Below are positions 2,253 through 59,315 of a DNA stretch of 64,000 nt, piece by piece. Both the position numbers and the translations under genes were made by a program. A model generated the notes under the pieces. The model was given only the letters and a program-made list of their open reading frames with translations. It was not told the DNA's origin and did not search any database. How positions within the stretch are numbered: position 1 is the first letter of the stretch; the number at the start of each line of letters is the position of its first letter. This DNA is from Hormiphora californensis (Eukaryota; Animalia; Ctenophora): contig CM035359.1 of assembly GCA_020137815.1 (NCBI GenBank), forward strand, positions 7,006,001 to 7,070,000, read 5' to 3'.

Positions 2253-24367
<22,115 letters not shown>

Positions 24368-25297: not shown

Positions 25298-27765
25298 AGG
25301 TCAAAATGGAAAAGTTTCTTATAGATTAGGTGGGTAAAAATGGGAAAGTTTCTAAGAGATTAGGTGGTTCAAAGTGGAAAAGTTTCTTAGAGATAAGGTG
25401 GGTCAAAATGTGAAAGTTTCTAAGAGATTAGGTGGGGCAAAGTAGAAAAGTTTCTTAGAGATAAGGTGGTTCAAAATGGGAAAGTTTCTTAGAGAAAAGG
25501 TGGGTCAAAGTGGAAAATTTTCTTAGAGATAAGGTGGGTCAAAGTGGAAAAGTTTCTTAGAGATAAGGTGGGTAAAAGTGGAAAAGTTTCTTAGAGAAAA
25601 GGTGGGTCAAAATGTGAAAGTTTCTTAGAGATAAGGTGGGTCAAAATGGGAAAGTTTCTTAGATATTAGGTTGGGAAAAAGGGAAAAGTTTCTTAGAGAT
25701 AAGGTGGTTCAAAATGGGAAAATTTCTAAGAGATTAGGTGGGTCAAAGTGGAAAATATTTTTAGAGATAAGGTGGGTCAAAGTGGAAAAGTTTCTTAGAG
25801 ATAAGGTGGGTCAAAGTGGAAAAGTTTCTTAGAGATAAGGTGGGTCAAAGTGGAAAAGTATCTTAGAGATAAGGTGGGTCAAAGTGGAAAAGTTTCTTAG
25901 AGATAAGGTGGGTCAAAGTGAAAAAGTTTCTTAGAGATAAGGTGGGTCAAAGTTGAAAAGTTTCTTAGAGATAAGGTGGGTCAAAGTGGAAAAGTTTCTT
26001 AGAGAGAAGGTGGGTCAAAATGTGAAAGTGTTTAAGAGATTAGGTGGGGCAAAGTAGAAAAGTTTCTTAGAGATAAGGTGGTTCAAAATGGGAAAGTTTC
26101 TTAGAGATAAGGTTGGTAACGAAGTTACCCCTCCCTTGCCGGCGCGCAAAGCGCACCGAACGAAGGTATCTTCGATACCAAGAGATAAGGTGGGTCAAAA
26201 TGGGAAAGTTTCTTTGAGAAAAGGTGAGTCAAAATGTGAAAGTTTCTAAGAGATTAGGTGAGGCAAGATAGAAAAGTTTCTTAGAGATAAGGTGGTTCAA
26301 AATGGGAAAGTTTCTTAGAGATAAGGTGGGTCAAAGTGGAAAAGTTTCTTAGAGATAAGGTGGGTCAAAATGGGAAAGTTTCTAAGATATTAGGTTGGGC
26401 AAAGTGGAAAAGTTTCTTAGAGATAAGGTGGTTCAAAATGGGAAAGTTTCTTAGAGATAAGGTGGGTCAAAGTGGAAAAGTTTCTGAGAGATAAGGTGGG
26501 TCAAAGTGGAAAAGTTTCTTAGAGATAAGGTGGGTCAAAATGGGAAAGTTTCTAAGAGATTGGGGGGGGGGTCAAAGTGGAAAAGTTTCTTATTGATTAG
26601 CTGGGTCAAATCGGGAAAGTTTCTAAGAGATTAGGTGGGTGAAAGTGGAAAAGTTTCTTAGAGATAAGGTGGGTCAAAGTGGAAAAGTTTCTTAGAGATA
26701 AGGTGGGTCAAAGTGGAAAAGTTTCTTAGAGATAAGGTGTGTCAAAATGCAAAAGAGAGATCTAGGGGGGGGTCAAAGTGGAAAAGTTTCTTATAGATTA
26801 GGTGGGTCAAAATGGAAAAGTTTCTAAGAGATTAGGTGGGTCAAAGTGGAAAAGTTTTTTAGAGATAAGGTGGGTCAAAGTGGAAAATTTTCTTAGAGAT
26901 ATGGTGGGTCAAAGTGGAAAAGTTTCTTAGAGATAAGGTGGGTCAAAATGGGAAAGTTTCTTAGAGATAAGGTGGGTCAAAGTGGAAAAGTTTCTTAGAG
27001 ATAAGGTGGGTCAAAGTGAAAAAGTTTCTTAGAGATAAGGTGGGTCAAAGTTGAAAAGTTTCTTAGAGATAAGGTGGGTCAAAGTGGAAAACTTTCTTAG
27101 ATATAAGGTGGGTCAAAATGTGAAACTTTCTAAGAGATTAGGTGGGGCAAAGTAGAAAAGTTTCTTAGAGAAAAGGTGGTTCAAAATGGGAGAGTTTCTT
27201 AGAGATAAGGTGGGTCAAAGTGGAAAAGTTTCTTAGAGATAAGGTGGGTCAAAGTGGAAAAGTTTCTTAGAGATAAGGTGGGTCAAAATGGGAAAGTTTC
27301 TAAGATATTAGGTTGGGCAAAGTGGAAAAGTTTCTTAGAGATAAGGTGGTTCAAAATGGGAAAGTTTCTTAGAGATAAGGTGGGTTAAAGTGGAAAAGTT
27401 TCTGAGAGATAAGGTGGGTCAAAGTGGAAAAGTTTCTTAGAGATAAGGTGGGTCAAAATGGGAAAGTTTCTAAGAGATTGGGGGGGGGGTCAAAGTGGAA
27501 AAGTTTCTTATTGATTAGCTTCTAAGAGATTAGGTGGGTGAAAGTGGAAAAGTTTCTTAGAGATAAGGTGGGTCAAAGTGGAAAAGTTTCTTAGAGATAA
27601 GGTGGGTCAAAGTGGAAAAGTTTCTTAGAGATAAGGTGGTTCCAAGTGGAAATTGGAAAAGTTTCTTTACTTAGAGATTAGTTGGGTCAAAATGGGAAAT
27701 TTTCTTTAAGAATTGGAGGTTAATAGCTTTTTTAGAGATTAGGTGGATCAAAGTGGGAAAGTTAC
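25298..27765 (+). repeat. 34-bp satellite array (~70 copies)
   Basis: Unit GGTGGGTCAAAGTGGAAAAGTTTCTTAGAGATAA. Shared variant blocks recur about 918 bp apart (near 26550 and 27470). Confidence 0.97.
26113..26181. mobile_element. ~69-bp hairpin MITE inserted in the satellite, with 9-11 bp target-site duplication
   Basis: TIRs TTGGTAACGAAGTTACC / GGTATCTTCGATACCAA, with GAGATAAGG on both flanks. A related copy lies at ~52337-52409. Confidence 0.8.
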
Positions 27766-40050: not shown

Positions 40051-43000
40051 ATGTCGAAACCGTATGAGAAACTGGAGGTAAGACAACAACTTGAAATTAC
40101 AAACCATGATTGCCCTCTATCGCAGCTTCAACCGCCCCCCCCCTCACTTATTAACTATATCTCATCTATCTTCTCAAAAATTTCACAAATTTAATAGAAC
40201 TCACCCTTCTTCCAACCTTGTGTGCGAGTTAACCCGTTTACAAGACGCAGCTGGATGCCACCTGTACAATATCGTTATGCATGCAATATCGTTATGCATG
40301 CATACAAAACTGTCATTGACCCGGACATTTCGCTGTTAGCTACTTTTTACAGGTCAAATGACCCTAATCCACCCTTTTTTCAACTGTAAAGTCGATTAAA
40401 GCAACTTTGAAAGCCCTAAAAAGCTTCCTTCGGCCATAAATCCGTTTTTATATAAAAACACAAGGATTTGTAGCGAAGCAAATTTTAAATTTTCCACCAA
40501 AATACATTAATTTGGCCATTCTGCACTCGTTTTCCATCTGAAAGGCTGTATCTTACGTACTATAGTCATTAGAACCGATTGTGAACCGCCCCCCTCACTT
40601 ATTAACTATTACCGTAATCTGGGGTAACTTTGTTTTGCAGGGTAACTTTGGACACTTTCAAAATTTGGCTTTAGTCCAAAATTACCAACAGATAACAACA
40701 GATTTGGCATAATTTTTGGGTGTACAAGTAATTGACCTACAAATGTCTAACTAACAGTACAATTATTTTTTTCAATTCTATGCTAATTAGCTCCTAATTA
40801 GGGGCAAACATAATTGATGTCAAAATCGCTAAAAATGTTCAAATCAAAATGGGTACCATAGATTTGACCGGGCTAATGACCGAATCAAGTTTGCTCCATA
40901 GAGTGGAAGGGTTTCGATCAAATAATTCGGGGCACCATTTTTCAAACCCGATCAATTACTTGAATTGAGACTAATAGGGGTGGCTAATGTTACCCCACCA
41001 TTTTTTGAATTTTGGGGTAACTTTGGACGGGGTGCCAAAGTTACCCCACACTACAGGTTTTGAACTTTTGATGTCTGTAGAGTTGCCTTAGACCCTCTCT
41101 GAATTGTTTAGGGCCATATAGTTAACCAATATTCAGCCCACTCCACGCCCATTTCCATCCATCTATTCGATGGGTTAGTGAAAAAACTAGGATTTGAACT
41201 ATTTTATGGAGCTAAATCACAGAAATCCGGCCTGAAACCCATCAAACTTCAACAATTTGGGGTTCCTCATCCATCCTGTAGCTTGTTAGATGGTATTGGA
41301 TCTCTAGGCGAGTGTTCTTGTAGACAATCTATACAGGAGCACAGGTACCAAAACTTCTTTATTTAGCCAGTACCCATAAGTAGACCACTTCCTGTCTATC
41401 TAATTCAGCAAAACGAACTAACACACTCGCCTAGAGGGCCAATACCATCTACCAAACTACAGGATGGATGAGGGACTCCAAATTACTGAAGTTTAATGGG
41501 TTTCAGGCCGGATGTGGCAACCTCTAAATCAAGTCCGATTGAGCTGAAATTTTATTTGGTGGCTAGTTTCATCATTCCTCACACCCAAAAAAGTTGAGTC
41601 GACATTTTTTTAAATCATGGGGCGTTTGGCTAACCATATTGTTCTTTTTTAATTTATTGACCCATTTAAACCCCATTTAAAAATTTTAGGTTCATTTATT
41701 TATCATTGCAAAATGTTCGGATTTATGTTTGTTCCAATATTACTATCGTGGGGTAACTTTGGACGGGTGTCCAAAGTTACCCTACCCTCATTCCAAAGTT
41801 ACCCCATGCCCTAAAACCCCACTTACACTAAAATACACGTTAATTAATGTAATTAAATGAGAGGGGACCAAAAATTTCACTAGTTATATCTGGTGTACTT
41901 GGTCTGGAACGGGATTATTTGGTCCAAAAATTTTCGAGTGTGGTTCTGGCAAGGAGTTATTTTAGGAGAATGCTAAAAAGTGGTACAAAGTTACCCCAAC
42001 TTACGGTATATCCCATCTATATTCTCAACAATTTCGCAAATTTAATAAAACTCGCCCTTCTTCCAACCTTGTGTGCGAGTTAACCCGTTTACAAGATGCA
42101 CCTGGATGCCACCTGTACAATATCGTTATGAAATTGCAATAACTTTCACAATGTGGCATTTTGGTTTTGAAGATATCTCTGTATAGATTTGAGTAGTATT
42201 TATTTACCCCCAATGCCTTCAATTTTATACGATAGTCTTAACTGCCAAAACATGTTCTTTTCCCACTCCCAGATGGCGGAGGCGTCAGAGACAGCCCAGA
42301 TCTCTACAAGCCCAGTCGAGAAGAAGGAGGAGGAAGGGGAGCGGGATGCATGGGGGGCAAAGACAGAGTACATGCTCGCCCTGATTGGTTATGCAGTTGG
42401 TATCGGTAATATTTGGAGGTTTCCCTATCTGTGTCATCGTTACGGGGGAGGTAAGATGATATCAACTACTACAGATAAGAAGTAAGATGATCATTAACAA
42501 CACTAGAGAACCTGCTTGATAACTTCCTACATTCTTTAACATTTTCTCCCTACCAGGTTCTTTCCTGATTCCCTACATCATTATGTTGTTTGTTATGGGA
42601 ATCCCTATGTTCTGCTTGGAAACCTGTTTAGGACAACTGACCAATAAGGGAGCACCTGGCGCCTTCGCGGTATATTTAATTTTGTTACGAAGTTACACCT
42701 TGCCAGCGTGCACGAAGGTCGCATCTTTAGAGGGGTTATTTCGTAACCAAATAATAATACTTAATATCGTATTCAATTGTACACCATGAATAAGAAAGGG
42801 AAACTAAAATCATCTTTTCTCAGGCAATGCACCCGCTATTTCGAGGCATTGGATATGCAGCTATGGTAGTCGATTTGATCTGCAGTTACTATTACAACTC
42901 CATCATTATGTGGATTCTGCGGTACTTCCTCTCTTCCTTCACCCTAGGTGAGTGCTCCTTTATAAGCTTAAAATATGCTCCTTCACAAAATGATTATATC

Positions 43001-46000
43001 AAACCATCCCCTCTTAGGTGATTTACCCTGGGCTGACTGTCCCTTGAACTCAACCTGCTGTATCCACTCCGACAACGCCACAATGCACTACTGGTGAGTG
43101 ATAGATCACAAGCTCCTAATTCAATGAACTCCATTTTATATGACTATTTCCCCAGGTACTATGACGCACTAAAGGCAAGTAACGATATTGGAGTGGTCGG
43201 AGGAATTGACTGGTACCTCTTTGGGTGTCTTGTCATCGCGTGGGTGGTCTGTTTCCTTTGTATGTGCAAAGGTAAGTGTAACACACATTACAACATTTGT
43301 CAACCAATCATTTTTTGCAAAGCTATATGAACACCAGGAACCGACCGAAACAAGTAAACAACCAATCAGAACTCGTTATTTAGGTCACGTGACTGGTTAT
43401 CAGCCAATCAGGGACCAGTATTTCGGTTCCTACTAAACGCAATCTCTACTTCAGGAGTTGAATCATCTGGTAAAGTGGTCTACTTCACAGCCACATTCCC
43501 CTACGTTCTCCTTGTGGTTCTGTTCTTCCGTGGTGTAACCCTCCCTGGAGCAGGAGAGGGCATCAAATATTACATTACACCAAAGGTAGGGGCATCAAAT
43601 ATTACATTACACCAAAGGTATAGGGGCATCAAATATTACATTACACCAAAGGTAGGGGCATCAAATACTACATTACACCAAAGGTATAGGGGCATCAAAT
43701 ATTACATTACACCAAAGGTAGGGGGCATCAAATATTACATTACACCAAAGGTAGGGGGCATCAAATATTACATTACACCAAAGGTAGGGGCATCAAATAT
43801 TACATTACACCAAAGGTAGGGGCATCAAATACTACATTACACCAAAGGTAGGGGCATCAAATATTACATTACACCAAACCGGTAGGGGCATCAAATATTA
43901 CATTACACCAAAGGTAGGGACATCAAATATTACATTACACCAAAGGTAGGGGCATCAAATATTACATTACACCAAAGGTAGGGGCATCAAATATTACATT
44001 ACACCAAAGGTAGGGGCATCAAATATTACATTACACCAAAGGTAGGGGCATCAAATATTACATTACACCAAAGGTAGGGGCATCAAATATTACATTACAC
44101 CAAAGGTAGGGGCATCAAATATTACATTACACCAAAGGTAAGGGCATCAAATATTACATTACACCAAAGGTAGGGGCATCAAATATTACATTACACCAAA
44201 GGTAGGGGCATCAAATATTACATTACACCAAAGGTAGGGGCATCAAATATCACATTACACCAAAGGTAGGGGCATCAAATATTACATTACACCAAAGGTA
44301 GGGGCATCAAATATTACATTACACCAAAGGTAGGGGCATCAAATATTACATTACACCAAAGGTAGGGGCATCAAATATTACATTACACCAAACCGGTAGG
44401 GGCATCAAATATTACTCTCTCACTAACCCTCCCCTCCCTGCTATAGTGGGAGCACTTAATGAACCCGGAAGTTTGGAGAACTGCAGCCACCCAGATCTTC
44501 TATTCTCTGGGTATTGCGTTTGGTAGTGTTGTCGCTTACAGTTCCTACAACAAGAAGAATAACAACTGTCTATTAGGTAAGCGGTTATTACCTGCACCGG
44601 GGTGGCGGGGTGTCCCTCCTGTTCGGTCATCCATTAACCACGTGTAGAATTAGTAAATACAAGGATCTCTGTAAACCACGTGTAGAATTAGTAAATACAA
44701 GGATCTCTGTAAACCACGTGTAGAATTAGTAAATACAAGGATCTCTGTAAACCTTTTCACACACACACACACACCACGTCTTTTCAGATGGTATTATTGT
44801 GACTCTGATAAACTGTTGTACCAGTATTTTCGGAGGTTTCGTCATCTTCTCTATCCTGGGATACAGAGCACACAAAACAGGTACAGAACCCTTTTTGTAA
44901 TTTAAGTTAGTGATTCGAACCAATATGTTATGCCAGAAAAAATTGTTTCACCGCTAAAAACGACTTTGTTTTAGGTGTGAAGTTTGAGAACCTGAAATCA
45001 GGACCTGGACTGGCGTTTGTTGCCATAACTGATGCAATCTCTGAAATGAGTATTGGACCACTTTGGGCCATCCTCTTCTTCTTTATGTTGTTCCTTCTTG
45101 GTCTGGACAGTCAGGTAACTTCCCCTGAACTTCTCCTGAACTGCTAAACCCAAGAAGGACTCTATATCTAACCCTAACCTTTACACTAACCCCTAAACTC
45201 GCACCCAATTAACGGCTCTAACACTTCTGAGTATAGAGGCACAGCAAACTTCCCCTGAACTTCTCAATATATTGTAAAAGTATATTAAGGTTCACCGTCT
45301 CTCACCCCACCCCGTGCCTGAAGAAAGTTTAACCCTTTCTTCACTAGTTTGGTATGTTGGAGAGTCTACTCACCTCCCTGAAGGACGAGTTCCCTATACT
45401 CAACAGAGCCAGAAAGGAACTTGTATCAGGTAATCCTTTTGGTGACGCAGTCACCCTACATCTTATCTTCAGGAAGTATCTGTTTGTTAACCCGCTAACA
45501 TCTTATCTTCAGGAAGTATCTGTTTGTTAACCCGCTAACATCTTATCTTCAGGAAGTATCTGTTTGTTAACCCGCTAACATCTTATCTTCAGGAAGTATC
45601 TGTCTGTTAACCCGCTAACATCTTATCTTCAGGAAGTATCTGTTTGTTAACCCGCTAACATCTTATCTTCAGGAAGTATCTGTTTGTTAACCCTAACATC
45701 TTATCTTCAGGAAGTATCTGTTTGTTAACCCGCTAACATCTTATCTTCAGGAAGTATCTGTTTGTTAATGCTAACATCTTATCTTCAGGAAGTATCTGTT
45801 TGTTAACCCGCTAACATCTTATCTTCAGGAAGTATCTGTTTGTTAACCCGCTAACATCTTATCTTCAGGAAGTATCTGTTTGTTAACCCGCTAACATCTT
45901 ATCTTCAGGAAGTATCTGTTTGTTAATGCTAACATCTTATCTTCAGGAAGTATCTGTTTGTTAACGCTAACATCTTATCTTCAGGAAGTATCTGTTTGTT

Positions 46001-48041
46001 AACCCGCTAACATCTTATCTTCAGGAAGTATCTGTTTGTTAACCCGCTAACATCTTATCTTCAGGAAGTATCTGTTTGTTAACATCTTATCTTCAGGAAG
46101 TATCTGTTTGTTAACCCGCTAACATCTTATCTTCAGGAAGTATCTGTTTGTTAACCCTAACATCTTATCTTCAGGAAGTATCTGTTTGTTAACCCGCTAA
46201 CATCTTATCTTCAGGAAGTATCTGTTTGTTAACCCGCTAACATCTTATCTTCAGGAAGTATCTGTTTGTTAACCCGCTAACATCTTATCTTCAGGGAGTA
46301 TCTGTTTGTTAACCCGCTAACATCTTATCTTCAGGAAGTATCTGTTAACCCGCTAACATCTTATCTTCAGGAAGTATCTGTTTGTTAATGCTAACATCTT
46401 ATCTTCAGGAAGTATTTGTTTGTTAACCCGCTAACATCTTATCTTCAGGAAGTATCTGTTTGTGAACACGCTAACATCTTATCTTCAGGAAGTATCTGTT
46501 AACCCGCTAACATCTTATCTTCAGGAAGTATCTGTTTGTTAACCCGCTAACATCTTATATTCAGGAAGTATCTGTTTGTTAACCCGCTAACATCTTATCT
46601 TCAGGAAGTATCTGTTTGTTAACCCGCTAACATCTTATCTTCAGGAAGTATCTGTTTGTTAACCCGCTAACATCTTATCTTCAGGAAGTATCTGTTTGTT
46701 AACCCGCTAACATCTTATCTGCAGGAAGTATCTGTTTGTTAACCCGCTAACATCTTATCTTCAGGAAGTATCTGTTTGTTAACCCGCTAACATCTTATCT
46801 TCAGGAAGTATCTGTTTGTTAACCCGCTAACATCTTATCTTCAGGAAGTATCTGTTTGTTAACCCGCTAACATCTTATCTTCAGGAAGTATCTGTTTGTT
46901 AACCCGCTAACATCTTATCTTCAGGAAGTATCTGTCTGTTCTTGTTCATCGCTGCTATTCCTATGGCCTTCCAGGGAGGGCTCTACATTGTGGACATTCT
47001 GGATAACTGGTCCCTATCATACCCTCTCCTCATCATTGCCGTCACTGAGATGGTCGCTGTTTCCTGGGTGTATGGAGTGGACAGATTCGCGGATGAGATC
47101 AAGGAAATGATAGGATACCGACCTAACTTGTACTTCACCATCTGCTGGAAGGTAAAACTCTTTCATCAATATAATGGGAAAAGGGATGAAACTTGAGTAG
47201 GCCGAAATTTCCCGTCATCAGATCACATCAAATCACCTTACCCAGTATCAGATTATCCCTCTAGGATCGGATCATATCCCACTCAGGATCAGATCTTAGA
47301 TACTACCTATCAAGCACTCTGTGTGATGTGATCCCCCTTATCTTATATTAGAGAGATAGCGAAAGTTAGAGATAGAGGGAGAGAGGGAGTAAGAGTGAAC
47401 AACGGGCCCTAGTAAAGATAAAATATATTGCTCAACACAACTAACATACATTTTACTTTCAGTATGTTAGCCCTGTTCTAGTTTCCCTCCTCATCCTGTC
47501 TGGTATTGTCCTGAGTATTCTCCAAGGTTATCCCAGCTACGAGAAGTTTGTTGGTTGTGATAACACCACCCTCATCGATCAGGTACATATTTCTTATGAT
47601 ATGTTTCACTTCTTCTTCTTCTTCTGTTTCACTACTTACTTAGTATTTGTTTCTTAGTATTTGTTTGTTTGAAAGAACTTCATGACCAACATTCCCCCAC
47701 CTATTATAGGGTCTTGCGCCTGAAGCCACGGCCAGTTGGGTGGTACCCGATAAAATGCCCGGAGGAGTAGTAGGATTCATAGTATTAATTAACATGGCGT
47801 AAGTAAAGCTATACTATTCTACAAGTCTCTAACTTCATGTTATCTACCGAATTGCCAAGCTAAACTGCCACTCGCGGGGTTGAACAAAACAACTACCGAA
47901 GTAGACGGCCCCGGGCCGGGATCTCACATTGTAACACCCTCATAACACCCTCATAACACCACATTATATCTCAGGTCGTGTTTCATGATCCCCCTGTACG
48001 CCATCAAGTACTTCAACGACAAACGAAGGTCCAGATTATAG
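40051..48041 (+). CDS. SLC6 / neurotransmitter:sodium symporter (NSS) family transporter, amino-acid type (~570 aa)
   Basis: Probable first coding exon 40051-40077 (MSKPYEKLE, phase 0), then 42273-42450, 42557-42669, 42824-42947, 43018-43093, 43156-43271, 43455-43585, 44447-44576, 44788-44880, 44975-45114, 45348-45429, 46925-47151, 47463-47582, 47710-47798, 47975-48041. Signature motifs: [67 protein letters not shown]1 has Gly rather than the monoamine-transporter Asp. Confidence 0.95.
40612..42006. mobile_element. Non-autonomous Tc1/mariner(pogo)-like DNA transposon, 1.4 kb, in SLC6 intron 1
   Basis: TA-flanked TIRs CCGTAATCTGGGGTAACTTTG / CAAAGTTACCCCAACTTACGG, repeated subterminal GGGGTAACTTTGGAC motifs, and an internal inverted repeat at ~41222-41515. 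Confidence 0.85.
43336..43431 (+). mobile_element. Short dispersed element (CCAAT-GTCACGTGAC-CCAAT core)
   Basis: A near-identical reverse-complement copy lies at 56782-56876 and a degenerate copy at ~20140-20220. Confidence 0.85.
43559..44415 (+). repeat. Minisatellite of ~26 x 32-34 bp; unit = last 27 nt of an SLC6 exon plus its splice donor
   Basis: Unit GGCATCAAATATTACATTACACCAAAG|GTAGG; the first copy is the true exon end at 43585. Confidence 0.97.
44637..44752 (+). repeat. 38-bp tandem repeat x3 in an SLC6 intron
   Basis: AACCACGTGTAGAATTAGTAAATACAAGGATCTCTGTA. Confidence 0.9.
45458..46940 (+). repeat. Minisatellite of ~37 x 40 bp; unit = branch point + acceptor + start of an SLC6 exon
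   Basis: Unit CCCGCTAACATCTTATCTTCAG|GAAGTATCTGTTTGTTAA; the last copy is the true acceptor at 46924/46925. Confidence 0.97.
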
Positions 48042-48477
48042 AGACTCAACCATTATATTGATATAGTTATAGCTGTGTATCAGAGTCAGTACGTGTATGG
48101 GGCAGCTTTGTGTAGTTACCATGGTTACCATAGTTACAATGCAGTTGGTGAGAGAAATATTAATTTGGGACTCTTGGGATCGTAGTATTATTATTATGAA
48201 TAAAATATTTTCAATATGCTATAAGCACATACTGCTTTTCGGACTATATGCCCATTCTAGGCTGCTAATTCACTGTGGTAATGTATCTAGATTTGGATAC
48301 ACTATAAATTGGAAGTATGAACCCAACGGTCCGCGCTGCTAAACTGAATTTATTTTATTTTGAAACAGAAACTGTTGTTTTTTAACACTTAACAACTAAA
48401 ACGTTCTACAATTTGTTCTTTGTTCAACAAAAAAACCAACTGTCACAACTAACAGTACAAATCGCACCCTTTCCATT

Positions 48478-51400
48478 TCACATATAGGGGTTGGGTTTAA
48501 CACTCCTTCTAAACTCCCTATCAGCTTTAGCTTCATCCAGTGGTTTAGTTTTGAACAAATCCTTAATTCCCTGTTCAAACCTCCTCCACCTCCTATCAGC
48601 TCGGATATGCTCCGGGGTCACTACTGGAGGGATCGATTCAACTGGAGTGAGGGGAGGAGAGTTGACAGTGAGATCACTCATAAAGTCCTCGAACTGTTGG
48701 ACTAGCTTGTGATGTTCAACCCAGAGCTCCTCCAATACATCCATTAAACTGGAGTCGTTATCCTACAATTGGTGGGGTGGTGGTGGTGGTGGTGGCATAC
48801 AGTACTGGGATGCTGAAAACTGTGCTTCATGCGTTGCGAGGTTTTGATGTTGTCTGGTTGTGCGTAGCTCTAAATATAGCCCTTAACAATGCATGGAAAT
48901 CGTGCCAAAAATAGATGAACAATAAAAAATGCGTAAAATTTTATTTTAAGGGCTATTGACGAGCTCAATTCCATCTTATATACTACTGTAAATATGTATT
49001 AAACAAACAAACTGACCCACATACATTATGTGGGTCAGTTTGTTTCTGCTTCCCCACAGAACTATGATAGTACTAGGGGGAAGCAGCATGGCTCTGAAAA
49101 ATAAGGATAGATAAATGCAGTAGTATTATAATTATGGTATAGGGGGGGGGGGTCACTTACATAAAAGAGAGCTTCCTCAACGTCAGTCCTCAGCAACCGA
49201 ACCTCATCACACAGATCCAGTATCAAGAGATGCCTCTTACTCAGACCACCCCTCTTTTTATTTTTAACTAGCTCAGAGAGACTGGTAGAGGTGGATCTGT
49301 TCACCGCCTGGAGAGGGTCAATTAGGAAGTGGGCCGGCTGACTTGGTGACATAGACACCTGGCGCGACCCCCGCTTAGTGTGTGAGCTCAATCTCGGTCG
49401 CGCCAGGTGTATATTTCACCAAGGGGCTGACCACGTGATCAGTTTGGTAGTTCTTCAAACCAGTACACCATAATATAGAATTAGTTGTAAAACAAAAGAT
49501 TCAACTGTGACAGAATATCATTTGTCTCCTGCTTAACAAAGTGAAGAAGAGGCGAACTAGGGTCAGCACACACCTACGCCAAAATCAAAATTATAATTTT
49601 GATTTTGGCCTAGGTGTGTGCGGACCCCTAGACAACTCTAAACAGTGGTACAAAATGTGGTACCATTGAATCTTGATATTCATTTGCCAATTTTAATGTC
49701 CCTGTTTCAGATCAGCTTGTATTGTCTCTGTGATAGTACAATGTTGATTTGTCAGTCTGTCGATAGGAACGTGTTCATGCTTGTCGGACAATGTCAATGT
49801 CATCAGAGTCTGGAATGAGACCCGGTGGCTTTTTCTTCATTCTCTGTTGTCGTTTGTGTTCCTTTACCACTTTCTTTTCCTGTGAATTTTACTGTCATGT
49901 TTTGTCTGTCAGCAGCTACAATTTCTACACGCCAGACTCTTTTTGGTCAAACCATGGACTCTTTTTGATCACTCTACTTAGGAGATCGCCGGGGAAGGAC
50001 CTGTATTTATCAACCCTGTTTCCTACTACTCACTTACCTCTTCTAAGGGCCTGTTTTTATCAATCCTGTTTCCTACTACTCACTTACCTCTTCCTTAATC
50101 CACGGGTAGATCTCAGCGACGGTTGCTTTCTTCTTTTTCTCTGTTACTTTCTTTCGTTCCACCGCCGTGTCAAACTGGGTGGGGACGTGTGTGTGATACT
50201 TCTAATTTTACATTTTTACAATTGCTGCGAAAGATTCTGAGTAGACTATCAAGTAGCACTACAGTCGGACCCCGATTTACCGGGATGCTCGGGGATAGGG
50301 TTTTGACCGGTAAATCGGGGTGCCCGGTAAATCGAGGTCCGACTGTATAATGCTTTTAACGACTTCTATTCCTAAAGCTACTACTACTCGCGTCTCGCAT
50401 ACTCTATCGTTTTTTGCAGGGGCAAGCCAGAACCTTCCTAATCCAAGAAGATTAACAAATCCAGCAGCAATCCCGGGTCCCTGATCTCTCCTCCTCCTAC
50501 TATCCCTGATCCCTCCAGTCTCTACATCTGCTGACGAAGCGGGGTCCGAGGAGGAAGTTGATAATTGACTGAGGGTCAAATCCGATACATTAGAGGTATC
50601 AACATCACTGAATGCCTGTAGAGATTCCTCAGAGGACACCTCACAGACAGATGTCTCTGTGAGAGAACTCTCACCAACCTCCACATCTCTGGGGTGTCTC
50701 TGAATCCTCCTCTTCCGGGGAATACCCTCAACATCAGAATCAATAATAGACCCATCCTCACTCGAGTCCTTCAATCCAAAACTCAGGGTTATCTTCCGAG
50801 GTTTTAGTTTAAGATCCTCTGGTGATGCCTCTCCACTAGCTGCACCACCCTCTGCAGATGATCCACCAGGGGAGGATGTGAAGGAAGAGGAAGAGGTATC
50901 GTAATCCGAACACGAGGAAGATGACGAGATGGGGGTGAGGGGGATGTCATCATCATCATGGGGGATCAGAGGTGTACCTGCATCTGCCACCTCACCTACT
51001 GTTACCTCCCCCAGTATGGCATTAGATGCAGCCTCACCACCTGGGAAATCACCAAGGATATCATCAGAGTGCTGCTGGACAACAGTGCAAACTCCAGTAC
51101 AACAGACATCATCAGAATGTGGGAGTCCTTCAATGTCTCCTAGTTCCACTGTGGATCGTGATGGATCAGTGCGTTGTGGTGGATCAGTCACTGTGGATGG
51201 TGGATCAGTGATCACAGTGCGTTGTGGTGGATCTACAGCTGCTGGAAGTGGTGGGGCAGTTATTTCATCCAGCAGTACCTCCTCCAGACTGAGTGTCCTG
51301 ATCCCATCTCCCAATAACACCACCTCATCACCACCTGTGTCCACCTCTCCCAATAACACCTGCACCTCATCACCACGTGTGTCCTCTTCCTCCTCTTCCA

Positions 51401-51482
51401 CAGAACTGCTCAGTGTGGAGTGGAAAGGTCGGCGGTAGGGAGCAGGGGATGTTGGTAGAGTGATTTGATCTTCATCTGACAT
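48478..51482 (-). CDS. Uncharacterised protein (~530 aa): long acidic S/T/P-rich disordered region plus helical C-terminal domain
   Basis: Phase-0 exons 50403-51482, 50088-50174 (FDTAVERKK...IYPWIKEE), 49161-49307 (AVNRS...EEALFY) and 48478-48762 (DNDSSLMDV...KPNPYM*), all with canonical GT-AG sites. No recognisable domain. Confidence 0.65.
50262..50345. mobile_element. 84-bp TA-flanked Tc1/mariner-type MITE
   Basis: TIRs CAGTCGGACCCCGATTTA / TAAATCGAGGTCCGACTG. A partial copy of the same family lies at ~3087-3141. Confidence 0.85.
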
Positions 51483-51753
51483 GGTGCTGGCACGGTTATG
51501 GATTATCAGCATGACAGAGGCAGGTGAAGAATATGTGAATAAGAGAAATGGTGAGACTCCTGACCCGATGAGAGTTTTGAAACGTGTTTATCAGAAATTT
51601 ATAAATAGTAAATACAGAAATTAGGAGAAGGCCAGAAGGGAAACCTAGAAACCGAACAAAGAAATATGAACTGATAGTTTGTATTTGTAATAAATGGTAG
51701 ACAGAAAAACAAGGGGCACAAAAACTCTGCATGTGTGTCTGCGAGAGGTCTTC

Positions 51754-51821
<68 letters not shown>

Positions 51822-52176
51822 TAGAGAGAGAGAGAGAGAGAGATAGAGAGATAGAGAGAGAGAGAGATAGAGAGAGGCAGGCGTGTGTGAGTACAGTAAG
51901 GTAGGCGGGGAACAGTTGTCTGAAACACTCCTGGCTTGCTCAACAACTCCTGGCGATAACATTTGACAAACAATCGTGTTTTGATTGGCCCTGGCTGCAG
52001 CCTTTTTTGGGATGGATAGTGGCAGGGATCTAATTTTAAAATCATTAATCAATAGAGGCCGATACGCTGTCAGAGCTTGCCTTGCTCGACCATGTTTCCC
52101 GCGACCAACCAGTAAAGGAGGGTTAGAACACTTTAGAGCATAAATAACTTGACTAAAAATCCCAAAATGCACTTAC

Positions 52177-52909
52177 CGACTTGACTGACATGAGTGAGGG
52201 ACGTCTTGACATGACCTCCGGGACTGTGCCCTGAGGGAGATTATAGTGTCAGCTGACTTATTGAAACAAGTAAAAATGAAACCCTGAAACCACAATAATA
52301 TCCACACGAGACCCTGACCAGAACCCCCATCTGGATTTGGTAACGAAGTTGCCCCCTCCCTTGGCGTCGTGCACCCCACGAAGGTCACGTGTGAGGTAAC
52401 TTTGTTACATCTGGATATTCCCTGTATGGCGGCGCTATACCCCATTTGATTCTCAGATATGGATATTTCCCTTTAATACTTTCCCACATATTCATCTCTC
52501 CTCAGCAGCTCTTCTATTTTACTTTTTATTCCCCTTGCCATTTTCCCCCTAACATTGGGGACCTCATCAGCACGCTCCCTCCTTCTCCCTGAAGGAGAGA
52601 AAAAGAGAGAGAGATGGAAAGAGAGATTGGAGAGGAAGAGAGAATATAGACTAGATAAGAGAAGAGACGAGAATAGAGAGGAGAGAAGGAAAGAGATAAG
52701 AGCCAAGGGTTTTGGGGTGGGGCGGGTTGGGGGCGACTCCCCTCTCCGCCGCCCCCGCTCGACTCTGCGCCTCGCCGCTCTCGCCTCCCCTGCTCCCCCC
52801 TACTTGCGCCGAGAAAAAAAAAATCGTTCATTATTATACCTGGTACTGGGGGAGGGTTACCAAGATCTGGGGGAACAGTGCTACCTCTCCTGCTTGGTGC
52901 TTTTGACAT
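52177..52909 (-). CDS. Three short coding exons, likely the 5' part of the 48478-51482 gene or a small separate gene
   Basis: Exons 52840-52909 (MSKAPSRRGSTVPPDLGNPPPVP), 52488-52588 and 52177-52230 (GTVPEVMSRRPSLMSVKS) join in frame. I could not find the in-frame link to the 51482 exon. Confidence 0.45.
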
Positions 52910-53713: not shown

Positions 53714-54406
53714 GACATGATCGGATATAGCACTTGGCTAAAACATTATGAAGCCGTCATCAGTTGCCGATACCAAATTACGAGACAGTTTTTATAATTG
53801 CAGAGGGGAGTGTTTAAAGGGGGGAAAACATCACAATCAATCTCTCAGCGGTCATTCAATATTTCACAGCAGAATGAGGTGATGTTAGGGGAGCAACAAT
53901 AGTCTTCCAGCGGTCATGTAGTTCCACCCCTGACAAGATAGATACTTTATCTTTCGATATAGTGTAGAAGAAATCCAACAAGATATCTTTCTACTAGTTT
54001 CTATCTTTCCAAGGATTGGAGCTATCGAACGTGAGGGCTATTGTCTGTCAGGCCAATGCTCTGACAGGCTATTGTTGATTGGTCCCTTTCTTGCACAAAA
54101 AGTCACATAGTACACACATTTAGGTAGCAAAACGCATTGCCACAAGAAATGATGAGTACCGGGGCCCAATACTGATCAAGCAAGAAAGACACTCAGGGGT
54201 AAGGGGGTCAAAACGGGGGGTCAGAAGGGTCAGGAAGGCAAATTGGTGGTTTAGAAAAGGAGTGTTTTAGCAAGGAGGGTGGGTCGTTAGTACAGACATG
54301 CAGGTAGAGAGGGGGAGCTGCGTGTATATTATACCAGCAATTGACACTGATCGCAGCAGCACTCAATATTGTGTCCCTCTCTGTTGAACTAATAATTAGT
54401 AACTAA

Positions 54407-55592
54407 TTACACCTTCATGTTGATAGGTAGAGGTACAAAAACATCATTCCACCCTCCTACCACCATGATATTCTTGTCATTCTTCTCAGTAACGAACATC
54501 CTCTCCAACCACCCCTGGAGTTCGGTAACTAGAGAGTAGCCGAGTTGGAGGACACGCTTATTGTTCTTTATCGTACTGACTTCGTTCTTTCCCTAATGAG
54601 GGGGGGGGGGTCATTATAAAGGAGGGAACTCCGAGAGGGATAGAGGAACTATAGGATGGAATCCGAATAGTCCTGGAATATTCCACGGTTATATTATGAC
54701 CGGGGGGGGGGGGGGGGGTGGCAGACTTACCAATATGTCGGACAGCAGTTTAGGGCACTCATCCTTGATACTAATGTCCTTTAAAGGGCGACACACCTCA
54801 GGTTTCTTGAGCTGTGGAAATATGTGGTATCAAAGGGGAGAAACGATATGTTTTCTGGCTAAACAGACAACAAGATATATGTCAAGACCCCCAATACCAT
54901 GCTAAACTTACCAGCTCCTCAACTGGTATGTCAAGACCCCCAATAGCATGCTAAACTTACCAGCTCCTCAACTGGAATGTAGAGGTCATTGAAACTCTGA
55001 GACTTCATGAACCGACTCGTTGGATTCGTCTTTATCTGCATCTCCAATAGACATTTCAACTGCAAAAATATCTCCCCGATCCTCTCACCGAACTCTTCCA
55101 GTGTCTGAAATTGGGATAATAATAATAATGGGATAATATGGGTGTTTGATATTGTCTGGTATCCATGAGAATCAAATCAGTGTCTGGCACCCTGCCAGAT
55201 AGAACTGATTGGTGGTGAGTGGTGTTTACTATTGGATCTTCTACTAGAAGCTCTTACCGAACGAGTGTTAGCAGGGAGGCAGGTAGAGAGATCACTGACA
55301 GCGACAAATTCAACCTGGTCCAAAATCTAAAAATAAATATATTATGTTGATGTTAAGTGGGTACATGAAATATTCTTTCTGTCTCACTTACATCGTTCTG
55401 TATTTCAATGGAAGCGAGCCAGCCATCCATTATGGAGTTAGATAGTGGCCTGGGTCCGGGGGCACACTGAAATTGTGCCTGCGACTGCTGTGTCCCATTG
55501 GTTGCCACAATCACTGCGGCTCCATCGACAACCAGTTGTTTAGAGGATATGTGGAGGGAGAAAAGGAGGGGTAGGAGCCAGGACACCATCAT
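54407..55592 (-). CDS. Secreted 226-aa protein, candidate long-chain four-helix-bundle cytokine (IL-6/CNTF/CLCF1-like)
   Basis: Five exons, all introns phase 0: 55392-55592, 55258-55326, 54961-55104, 54731-54811, 54407-54592. Signal peptide MMVSWLLPLLFSLHIS...VDG/AA, four amphipathic segments, 5 Cys, one NGT sequon. A probable non-coding upstream exon has its donor at 55946. The gene model is well supported; the cytokine assignment is an inference. Confidence 0.8.
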
Positions 55593-55891
55593 GGGGGGAT
55601 CTAGAGGGGAAACTGTGTCAATCATGAGTCCATTAAATGGGGGATCTAGAGGGGGAAACTGTGTTAATTGAGTCCATTAAATGGGGGATCTAGAGGGGGA
55701 AACTGTGTCAATTGAGTCCATTAAATGGGGGATCTAGAGGGGGAACTGTGTCAATTGAGTCCATTAATGGGGGATCTAGAGGGGGAACTGTGTCAATTGA
55801 GTCCATTAAATGGGGGATCTAGAGGGGGAAACTGTGTTAATTGAGTCCATTAATGGGGGATCTAGAGGGGGAAACTGTGTCAATTGAGTCC
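55593..55891 (-). repeat. ~7 x 42-43 bp tandem repeat containing the acceptor of the cytokine-like gene's first coding exon
   Basis: Minus-strand unit AATTGACACAGTTTCCCCCTCTAG|ATCCCCCATTTAATGGACTC. Confidence 0.9.
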
Positions 55892-56592
55892 AGGCAATAC
55901 CCGCAATTGGAAAGTAGAGGCTCTATGGACAACAGATATATCTTACCTAGATAAGTAGACTGTAGTAGATTATAGAGATCTCAACATCTTCCAACCATCG
56001 CCCCCTTTTTATACTCCCCCGATTTATTCTTTCAAACTGTTTTTAATTAGAAAACCTATCTCTCTGCATCCGTTGGTGAATCTCCCCATCTAGCTAACAC
56101 ATGTATCTCTCCAGTCTCCGATAGAATCTACCGACCCATTTATCCTTTAGATACCCAACGTGTCTCCTACTCGAAAAAAGTTAATTTAAAAAGTTTAATT
56201 GCAAGTTAAAAATAGTACAACTGCTAACATATCAGTTCCCTACTATATTGCAAAGGAAACAATATTTCCATGAACAACATGTGAGTTAGATTGTTTGGCA
56301 GCAGATTGCCAACAGGTGACGGTTAGACTTTAGATAGATTTAGTATTCAAAATACAAGGTATATGGGGGGTAGTAAATAGATACAACTTTACAGGACCAC
56401 ATTCGCCGTTTTAAATAGTTTACACCTTTTTATATTTACAGTTTTTAGTGTTGATAATGTGGGGTTTGCGTGTATCATGGTAGCGGTAGCACACATATGC
56501 AGTGTGATACAATTAGTGTATCTTCAGACATTATGGACCGGCCAAAAAACAGAAAGAATGAAAGAGAGATGATTTAGAGAGAATGAGAGTGT

Positions 56593-58035
56593 CTAGAAAG
56601 CAGTTTTAAGGTCGTGAAATTGATCGTCAATCCTCATGTCTCGTTGCATTGCAGTTTTGTCGCTCACTTTTGCAGTTAGTACCACGTGTTGAAGCTGTGG
56701 AAAATACGGAATTTAGTTGACCCAGCTGATACTTCAAGCCAGATAGAGTAAAAAATAGCACTAGATTGAGATACAATGAAGCAAGAACCGACCAAATCAG
56801 GAAATACTGGTCCCTGATTGGCTGATAACTAGTCACGTGACCTAAATAACGAGTTCTGATTGGTTGTTTACTTGTCTACAATGAAGAACTTACCACGCCT
56901 ATCCTGAGCTCCATCTGAATTAGTTCATTCTTTATCTTGGTGATGGCCTGTTTAATCTTCACCAAGGGGCCACTGTCTGTCATGGTGGTTCCCTTCTCAT
57001 CCATCTGAGCCTTGACAGTCTCCAACTCTTCATTTATCTAGGAGGTGAGACACGTGTTATAGTTGTCTGTATTGCGGCCCCATACCCCATTTGATTCTCA
57101 GTGCGCTCAGATGGGGTCGCGGCGCCAGACAGGTTATAGTTGTCAGTGTCTGCTTGTCACTAGATAAGAAGGATTGTACATATACAATTATACAATTAGA
57201 TACCTGTGCAAGAGTGCGGCTTTGTTCGGTGACCGTGGAACCAGCAGTCTGGTACTTGTTCTCCAACTCTGCCAACCTGTAGAAAACAAGTCACACGGAT
57301 AGCTGACGGTATCATTCGAGCCAGGAAAAAGATTTGCAGTGCGAGCAGCGAGGTACAGCATTTGAGCCAGGCATCACTAAAAATATTTACAGAACGAGGT
57401 ACAGCAAAACCAAACCAAACCAAACCAAGACACTAAAAACACTAGTGTCAAAATATATCCCCCAGGTTGGCTAGAAAATACATTTCCCTACCTGTCTTTG
57501 AGGCGGCGGTACTCCTCAAGTGGGCCTTCCATTTGGCTGTTAATGTACTTCTCTCTGCTTCCAATCTTCTCAAGAGTCCGTGTAATCTCTTGATGCATCT
57601 GATCCAGTTGAGTCTAGAGAGGGATTTAGGGGATATTATTGGGATATTATTGGGGGTTAGGGGAGATTATTGGGATTTAGGGGATATAATTGGGAGATAG
57701 GGGAGATTATTGGGAGTTAGGGGATATTATTGGGATTTAGGGGATATTATTGAGCGTTAGGGGATAATATTGGGAGTTGGGGGATATTATTGGGAGTTAG
57801 GGGACATTATTGGGAGTTGGGGGAGTATTGTTGAGAGATAGGGGAGATTATAGGGACGTGAACTGCAGCAGCATACCTTGCTTGAAGTCAGGGAAGTTGT
57901 CATATTCTTCCTGTATTCCAGCATACTGTCCAGGTGGGTTCTCCAGTCCTGGGATACTGACTCCTAAAGACGTGATGTCACACATAGATGCTTCACAATA
58001 TCACAAGGCATGGGAGAGAGGGAGAGAGAGAGAGG

Positions 58036-58092
<57 letters not shown>

Positions 58093-58126
58093 GAGAGAGG
58101 GAGAGAGAGATAGAGAGAGAGAGGAG

Positions 58127-58178
<52 letters not shown>

Positions 58179-59315
58179 GAGAGAGAAGGCTTCTAGGAGG
58201 CGAGGAGAGAGAATGAGACATAGGAGACGCCGCGCAGCGAGAGCGGCCGGAGGGGAGATGGCCGTGGATCTTTTCAAGGAAGGTCACTTATAATCACACT
58301 TTTGAAACTTCCACCCTACGATTTAAACACAACACTAACCTTATCGTGTTTCAGATGAACCTTGAGAGAGGGCAGAACTCTTTCAACCTCCATCTTCCAT
58401 TCCAAAACATCAGTGTTCGATTCCAGTAGGTTCTCTTGTCTTTGAACCTGAATTTAGAAACATTGTGAAGAGACGGGTGCCGATTGAGAACTCGATTTAA
58501 AGTTATGCACTTGTCTGCAGATTTTACTTCTAAAAGTACTACTAGCTGTAGCAATACTAATATTACTGCTAGTAGTAAAATGATCATTACCTCAGCGGCA
58601 TTCTCAAATCCTGTACCAGAGGCTCCTGGCATCCCAGCGCCACTCTCTCCTACATCAACCATAATCTCTTCTTCGCAATCCTCATCTATTTCCTCATCTA
58701 ATGAAGGTTAGGAATTTCAATATTTTATTAAAAACACTTGTGACTTGTTTATTATAACAGTAGAGAACAGGAGCATCCTTCCTTTTAACTTTGTATTCTC
58801 TATAGTACTGTATATTACCGTCGATCTGCTCGTCTAGAGGCTCATCCTCTATTGCCTCTTCCTGGGCGTCTTCTTCTGTATACTCAGGCCTGAGGAAATA
58901 AAAGCCTTTCATTTCCTTTTATAAAAAAGGGAAACATGACAGACAAAATGACAATTTGACATACACAGGACAAACAATTTGTGTCAGTTTGTGTTGTGAT
59001 TGCGCGCACATGCAACAGAACAGAAGATGCCTACACTTTCTACTTTCAACTTATCAGAAAACTCGCGCGCAACAACTCAAGGGGATTATCAATCAAATGT
59101 GACCGTCGTAGCTATGGGACAATCAAATAAAACTGAGAATAATCAAAAGAAAGGGAAGAATTAAATAGATAAACACTGCTGACTGCCGACGCTTTTTGCA
59201 ACGAGTTGGAAATAAAAAACAAAGGAGACGAAACAAAAATAATTAGCTACCTGCCCCAAGCAAAGCGTCGTGTTTCAAGGGCTTTGCTAGCCAGTTGGTT
59301 GAGGATGTAGCATAC
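56593..59315 (-). CDS. IFT57: Intraflagellar transport protein 57 (3' nine exons; 5' exons not found in window)
   Basis: Exons 59251-59315 (VCYILNQLASKAL..WGR), 58819-58889, 58591-58697, 58340-58447 (EWKMEVERVLPSLKV), 57877-57948 (DWRTHL), 57492-57613 (ITRTLEKIGSREKYIN), 57204-57276, 56894-57037 (MTDSGPLVKIKQAI...RIGV) and 56593-56694. These are diagnostic IFT57/Hippi motifs. Confidence 0.96.
56782..56876 (-). mobile_element. Same short element in the last IFT57 intron, with a 10-bp flanking direct repeat
   Basis: TACAATGAAG at 56772-56781 and 56877-56886. Confidence 0.85.
57620..57855 (+). repeat. Degenerate ~20-bp minisatellite in an IFT57 intron
   Basis: Recurring GGGGATATTATTGGGAGTTA variants. 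Confidence 0.85.

Follow-up and report, generated by a model that had tools for sequence, protein, structure and literature searches.

Several helical cytokine genes share a recurrent layout. Five coding exons and four intervening phase-0 introns have been published for the IL-10 family, IFNL1, IL3 and IL21 (PMC2654155, PMC12652433) and for fish type I interferons (IFNs) (PMC4929537). The layout has served as a discovery filter: IFN-upsilon was found by looking for five coding exons, phase 0, a signal peptide and several helices (PMC8863823), and in the sea lamprey the same filter reduced 132 genes to 14 with a signal peptide and fewer than 300 amino acids (aa), and these to a single helical one, which is an interferon (bioRxiv 10.64898/2026.05.30.728932). 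We describe a gene of this layout at positions 54407–55592, minus strand, of a 64,000-nucleotide stretch of the ctenophore Hormiphora californensis (GCA_020137815.1, contig CM035359.1, 7,006,001–7,070,000), called the window below. It is an expressed, conserved six-exon gene with an intron plan of the class II cytokine (interferon/IL-10) type, and its product is predicted to be secreted and rich in helices. We give about an even chance to the reading that it encodes a secreted, helical-cytokine-like ligand on the class II gene plan; on present tests it belongs to no named cytokine family.

The gene reads as a chain of 226 codons without an internal stop, in five coding exons joined across four GT-AG introns of 65, 153, 149 and 138 nt (coding introns 1–4), each of the form GTAAG..AG and each in phase 0 (Table 1). 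The chain has cysteines at residues 43, 83, 108, 145 and 157 and a single N-glycosylation sequon at residue 32. The same five coding exons, intron phases and length had been given in an original prediction made from the sequence before this analysis, and are confirmed here; a further, non-coding 5' exon had been missed. Transcript evidence comes from contigs of three public runs on 53800–57400, with a depth of 3–4 and contig pieces about 95–97% alike. Two of the runs, X1 and X2, are marine RNA-type runs from different studies, the RNA type being a guess for one of them; contigs of the third fall on a repeat only. The proposed splicing could be followed at two introns: one X2 contig joins 55392 to 55326 across coding intron 1, and the 5' untranslated region (UTR) intron is spanned by a contig from X1 and another from X2, which link 55947 with the acceptor at 55601/55600 and have shorter arms of 24 and 19 letters. 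In the upstream exon the frame of Met1 holds a stop and no later ATG; the gene therefore has six exons, the first non-coding, and Met1 is the start. No contig in any of the three runs covers exons 3 and 4, so that coding introns 2 and 3 are read from the sequence, while a gene model of Pleurobrachia bachei, itself a prediction, joins across coding intron 4 as well. Neither an ATTTA element nor AATAAA was found within 707 bases 3' of the stop.

Seven of the eight coding differences listed between contigs and genome (positions near contig ends are not listed) are silent, the other being I28V. This share compares with 22% expected (P 1.6e-4; P 3.6e-3 at 35%), and the gene is under purifying selection. 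We note that the window's C-run before the ATG (55593–55598) exceeds that of both RNA contigs by 2 nt, a difference that is harmless in the UTR and is either allelic or a homopolymer error.

The sole relative found is the P. bachei gene model mentioned above, sb|3476408 (EukProt EP00116 P016146), which is 117 residues long. Over exons 4–5 it is identical at 79 of 88 residues (57 of 61 in exon 5), and it shares the exon 4–5 joint. None of exons 1–3 matches its first 30 residues, and the model lacks these exons. Compared with the gene described here the model is truncated, unannotated and without a Pfam family, and we interpret it from this alignment as a truncated counterpart. The start of exon 4 is doubled at the beginning of the model, a possible explanation of the truncation. 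Because the only database copy lacks exons 1–3, the gene would be hidden from proteome-based structure screens. The closest record being a Pleurobrachia model supports the earlier suggestion that the DNA came from a ctenophore; as to orthologues in other ctenophores, which the original prediction proposed to look for, this one model with the same joint was the only one found. One further database match was dropped as repeat-derived.

Hydropathy points to a likely signal peptide, with a hydrophobic core at residues 5–15 and small residues at −3 and −1 of a putative cut after G24. The remaining chain would be 202 residues long, in line with the signal peptide and mature chain of about 200 residues proposed originally, and it has no further hydrophobic segment (the highest 19-residue hydropathy past residue 30 is 1.03). 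Protein collections hold no full-length copy, and for this reason only fragments were folded, by single-sequence AlphaFold with no alignment. Exon 3 gave a confident 25-residue helix at 92–116 (pLDDT about 95), and its helical moment was reached by about 2% of 5000 shuffles. The exon 4–5 model was poor (pLDDT 37), yet it contains helices at 154–167 and 177–199; the moment of the latter was reached by about 1% of 5000 shuffles, and that of the former, a low-confidence prediction, by 4–20%. Helix A was assessed by shuffling; its moment was reached by 2–7% of shuffles, with a best angle of 76 degrees. The original prediction had four amphipathic segments, A to D, which would form an up-up-down-down bundle. 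B (92–116) and D (177–199) are supported and A moderately so, whereas C (122–141) is not supported by itself: its moment was reached by 28–29% of shuffles, and the second half of exon 3 folded in isolation has no continuous helix (pLDDT 56–61) and contains Pro134. The helix at 154–167 is additional, and the tally becomes two well supported, two moderate and one weak, to be set beside the five to six alpha helices of class II cytokines. When the mature chain was shuffled 300 times, the best four 20-residue amphipathic windows were jointly reached in 3 cases, and five 18-residue windows of similar strength, picked post hoc, lie at 54–71, 90–107, 126–143, 152–169 and 177–194. The last 27 residues (200–226; 54410–54490, minus strand) contain a Gly-Gly-Trp turn flanked by two hydrophobic, strand-like stretches, and are nearly unchanged in P. 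bachei.

We compared the gene with the features of class II genes. Among those of the IFN-upsilon filter, five coding exons and phase 0 are present outright, and the signal peptide and several helices plausibly so; the length (226 aa, 202 mature) agrees with the class II size of about 200 residues. The internal exons are short-long-short (69, 144 and 81 nt), as in class II genes. Under a log-normal distribution fitted to 18 internal exons from two neighbouring genes, this pattern has a probability of 0.012–0.018 with broad size ranges and 0.003–0.004 with narrow ones, where the ranges come from class II exon sizes and were set after the gene was seen. Class II genes have a cysteine 20–25 residues before intron 1 and another early in exon 4, and exons 4 and 5 each encode one helix. 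Here C43 lies 24 residues before intron 1, another cysteine is at position 7 of exon 4, and the post hoc windows likewise put a single predicted helix in either of these two exons. The N-terminal motif of IFN-upsilon, C-x5-[W/L] (PMC8863823), is missed by one position, C43 having P at +6 and L (L50) at +7. The fuller plan (exon count, phases, signal, size, helices) is more specific than phase alone; the commonest intron phase in proteins with a signal peptide is reported to be 1, not 0 (PMC1626468).

On the preferred reading, the product would be mostly helical and would probably form a helical-cytokine bundle of the class II plan. Helix A would span intron 1, a long helix would open exon 3 and a weaker one close it, and exons 4 and 5 would contribute one each, giving a five-helix bundle that may be tied by disulfides among the five cysteines. 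The protein would then act as a paracrine signal from cell to cell through a receptor of fibronectin-III (FN3) or Ig type, probably other than the JAK-coupled receptors of vertebrates and speculatively a receptor tyrosine kinase or an FN3-TIR protein.

The original prediction proposed an IL-6/CNTF-family-like cytokine, and membership of that family is not supported. There is no F-x-x-K in the 226-aa chain, whereas the FxxK motif in site III of the LIFR binders, at the start of helix D, is more than 90% conserved in LIF, m17 and CT-1 (PMC9601804); the IL-6 signature C-x9-C-x6-GL-x2-Y-x3-F (PMC3271213) is absent from the chain, as is even C-x9-C; neither the exons nor the exon 4–5 model matched a cytokine in Pfam or the PDB; and the support for helix C is poor. 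Five coding exons with 0-0-0-0 introns and a helix in exon 4 are, from published gene structures, a hallmark of class II rather than of IL-6 or IL-11 genes. A putative likeness of the last helix to those of CNTF and CLCF1 had been part of the earlier case, as had a comparison with exon 4 of human IL6, given there as 49 codons for helices B and C. A long-chain class I cytokine resembling IL-6, CNTF or LIF, built of four core helices plus a short extra one in the C-D loop and acting through a gp130/Domeless-like receptor, is improbable in our estimate, although some traits would suit it. Long helices are predicted to open exon 3 and to occupy exon 5. The Asn-Pro pair after helix B (117–118) can be aligned by eye with Asn105/Pro106 of LIF, which are 97–98% conserved (PMC9601804). 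Exon 2 ends 7 residues after C83. The A-B loop cysteine of IL-6 and G-CSF is similarly placed. The introns argue otherwise: that nearest the start lies 8 nt before the ATG, whereas the first intron of IL-11 lies 7 bp into the coding region (PMC3271213), and here an additional intron falls between the loop helix and helix D. Ligands of the IL-6 family have so far been reported only in vertebrates, in a text that names ctenophores as unsampled (PMC13203501). Compared with the IL-6/gp130 family as a whole (IL-6, IL-11, CNTF, LIF, CT-1, CLCF1, fish M17), the gene is alike in size and in having two helices in one 48-codon exon, and differs in having no phase-1 intron in the signal peptide. An early first coding intron is not common to all members of that family.

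The reading as a cytokine-like ligand on the class II plan must also be weighed against an orphan secreted helical protein, Pleurobrachia- or ctenophore-specific and unrelated to cytokines, whose role would be in structure, adhesion (colloblast, mesoglea) or lineage-specific signalling and whose intron and exon plan would be alike by chance. This is a serious possibility to which we give a good third of our belief, and a number of observations weigh on its side or against the cytokine-like reading. Searches with exon 1 and exon 3, a word-free phmmer search and two metagenome scans gave no relative beyond the P. bachei model, and the Atlas was blank for two of two queries. Pfam returned no significant family for the five exons, two longer frames or the P. 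bachei model, in a scan of single exons and the exon 4–5 model with HMMER filters that drop weak matches; the IL10, IL22, Interferon, IL28A and IFN-gamma profiles likewise had no match to single exons or the exon 4–5 model. Against PDB sequences the exons and the exon 4–5 model reached a best E of 0.12, with no cytokine among the matches, and fold searches with protein fragments were uninformative. The helix F signature of IFN-gamma, [IV]-Q-x-[KQ]-A-x2-E-[LF]-x2-[IV] (PMC3271213), is absent, only an E-L-x-x-hydrophobic core (189–193) being present. The weak helix C, the low confidence of the exon 4–5 model, the odd number of cysteines and the conserved strand-like tail, unusual for a cytokine, point the same way. 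A cysteine usually closes exon 3 in class II genes and none does here, and their last exon is shorter than exon 5. The original prediction held phase-0 introns to be typical of helical cytokine genes, and the five-exon 0-0-0-0 plan is indeed published for IL-10 and interferon genes; phase on its own is weak evidence. The neighbouring SLC6 and IFT57 genes, whose open frames of 562 and 266 residues were annotated from the sequence, have 20 introns between them; 10 are in phase 0, which gives about a 6% chance of 0-0-0-0. In IFT57, whose product is also helical, the share is 5 of 7. Thirteen of the 14 lamprey genes that passed the three filters (signal peptide, below 300 aa, 0-0-0-0) are not interferons, and that screen found copies in lancelets and none in other invertebrates, with no protein of IFN fold beyond the chordates (10.64898/2026.05.30.728932); many false positives from such gene-plan methods are warned of in PMC2654155. 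CRLF3 was not found in ctenophores (PMC6797617), which are reported to have the fewest JAK-STAT components (PMC11193209). Set against the orphan, none of the 13 lamprey non-interferons passed the helix filter (10.64898/2026.05.30.728932), and chance would have to account for the agreement with class II in exon sizes, in the placement of helices exon by exon and at two cysteine positions.

An exchangeable lipid- or membrane-binding bundle of amphipathic helices with simple up-down topology, such as an apolipophorin-like carrier or a secreted helical effector, would account for several strongly amphipathic helices and for the exon 4 and exon 5 helices, with their short linker, being modelled as a hairpin. 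We regard it as very unlikely: there is no repeat periodicity and no family match, no hydrophobic segment follows the signal, and a disulfide-tied ligand is the better match for a chain that has five cysteines, a glycosylation sequon and long linkers with Pro. A stronger form of the cytokine-like reading, that the gene is a true homologue of vertebrate helical cytokines, we hold tentatively, as a substantial minority view. The phase-0 interferon/IL-10 plan together with class I-like traits would then be a relic of the ancestor of both classes, would trace both ligand and gene plan back to the last common animal ancestor, before JAK-coupled receptors, and would imply signalling through another receptor. 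Such a mixture of traits would be expected of an ancestral cytokine and also of pattern-matching by eye.

Features of the gene and its surroundings are collected in Table 1. IFT57 is a useful synteny marker: it lies upstream on the same strand, with about 620 bases between its end and what is known of the 5' UTR exon, and the candidate gene follows just downstream. An element of about 95 bases is dispersed in introns of IFT57 (56779–56875) and SLC6 (about 43340–43425); it is very deep in all three runs, and is a high-copy, transcribed repeat. The pieces tested of the unannotated gene at 48400–52900 gave no Pfam family. Tandem arrays repeatedly copy exon ends and splice sites in this genome (55594–55892, 54878–54980, 43558–44415 and 45458–46940): two SLC6 introns are filled by arrays that copy the donor (32 bp × 26.5) and the acceptor (40 bp × 37.8), and among the acceptor copies before coding exon 1 the transcripts use the one nearest the exon, at 55601.

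Table 1. Features of the candidate gene and of the rest of the window (positions in the window)
Feature	Position	Strand	Remarks
5' UTR exon (non-coding first exon), 3' end	55947–55970	−	X1 and X2 RNA contigs; exon start not found
44-bp tandem array, 6.9 copies, inside 5' UTR intron	55594–55892		copies acceptor region of coding exon 1
Coding exon 1	55392–55600	−	ATG at 55592; coding 55592–55392, 67 codons; likely signal peptide, N32 sequon, C43, most of putative helix A
Likely signal peptide, residues 1–24	55521–55592	−	from hydropathy
Coding exon 2	55258–55326	−	23 codons; end of putative helix A, A-B linker with C83; joined to exon 1 in X2 contig
Coding exon 3	54961–55104	−	48 codons; predicted helix 92–116, short linker, weaker amphipathic 126–143 with Pro134; C108; no RNA cover
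49-bp duplication of exon 3 end and donor	54878–54980		second donor (54911) would shift the frame
Coding exon 4	54731–54811	−	27 codons; C145, C157, short predicted helix 154–167
Coding exon 5	54407–54592	−	61 codons and stop; predicted helix 177–199, then 27-residue tail; X1 contig cover
Probable 3' UTR	54084–54406	−	X1 contigs 54084–54258 and 54326–54419; X1 run may hold DNA
IFT57 gene	56593–59300	−	Pfam PF10498 in 4 exons; joint 57037–57204 seen in RNA contig
SLC6 (sodium:neurotransmitter symporter) gene	42273–48030	+	14 exons, 562 residues
Unannotated multi-exon gene, downstream	48400–52900	−	436-codon acidic low-complexity frame 51587–50280
C2H2 zinc-finger exon	21305–21664	+	PF13465, E 3e-7
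34-bp satellite, about 65 copies	25299–27652		strong GC skew

Ctenophores are not known to have JAK. A survey of immunity in Mnemiopsis reports an FN3-TIR gene induced by Vibrio, and its available text mentions neither JAK nor interferon (PMC11797021); the infection-induced gene is a speculative lead to a receptor. The deepest interferon-plan genes reported are those of lancelets; the string 'ctenophor' is absent from the main text of that report, whose supplementary species list may bear on novelty (10.64898/2026.05.30.728932). A targeted literature search turned up no prior report of a helical cytokine gene in a ctenophore. If the reading as a helical cytokine is true, the ligand fold and intron plan would originate at the base of animals, cytokine-type messengers would be far older than thought, and the origin of the ligand would be separated from that of JAK-coupled receptors. 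If the fold fails, the gene encodes an ordinary orphan secreted protein.

Among known systems, IL-34, CSF-1, SCF and Flt3L have the helical-cytokine fold and are ligands of receptor tyrosine kinases, so the fold can signal without JAK; they differ from the protein described here in being short-chain bundles with other gene plans, and no match to them was found. Drosophila Unpaired (Upd1–3) is a secreted invertebrate ligand likewise counted with the helical cytokines and without recognisable sequence match to those of vertebrates, but it has a known receptor (Domeless) and JAK, and the likeness is one of description only. From the class II cytokines (the IL-10 family, IFN-lambda, the intron-containing type I IFNs of fish and amphibians, IFN-upsilon, and the lamprey and lancelet IFNs) the gene differs in having no detectable sequence match, a longer last exon with a strand-like tail, and a host far outside the chordates. 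It is like them in its exons, phases and size, in its likely signal peptide and in its predicted helices, and IFNL2/3 likewise carry an extra upstream exon, which in this gene is non-coding.
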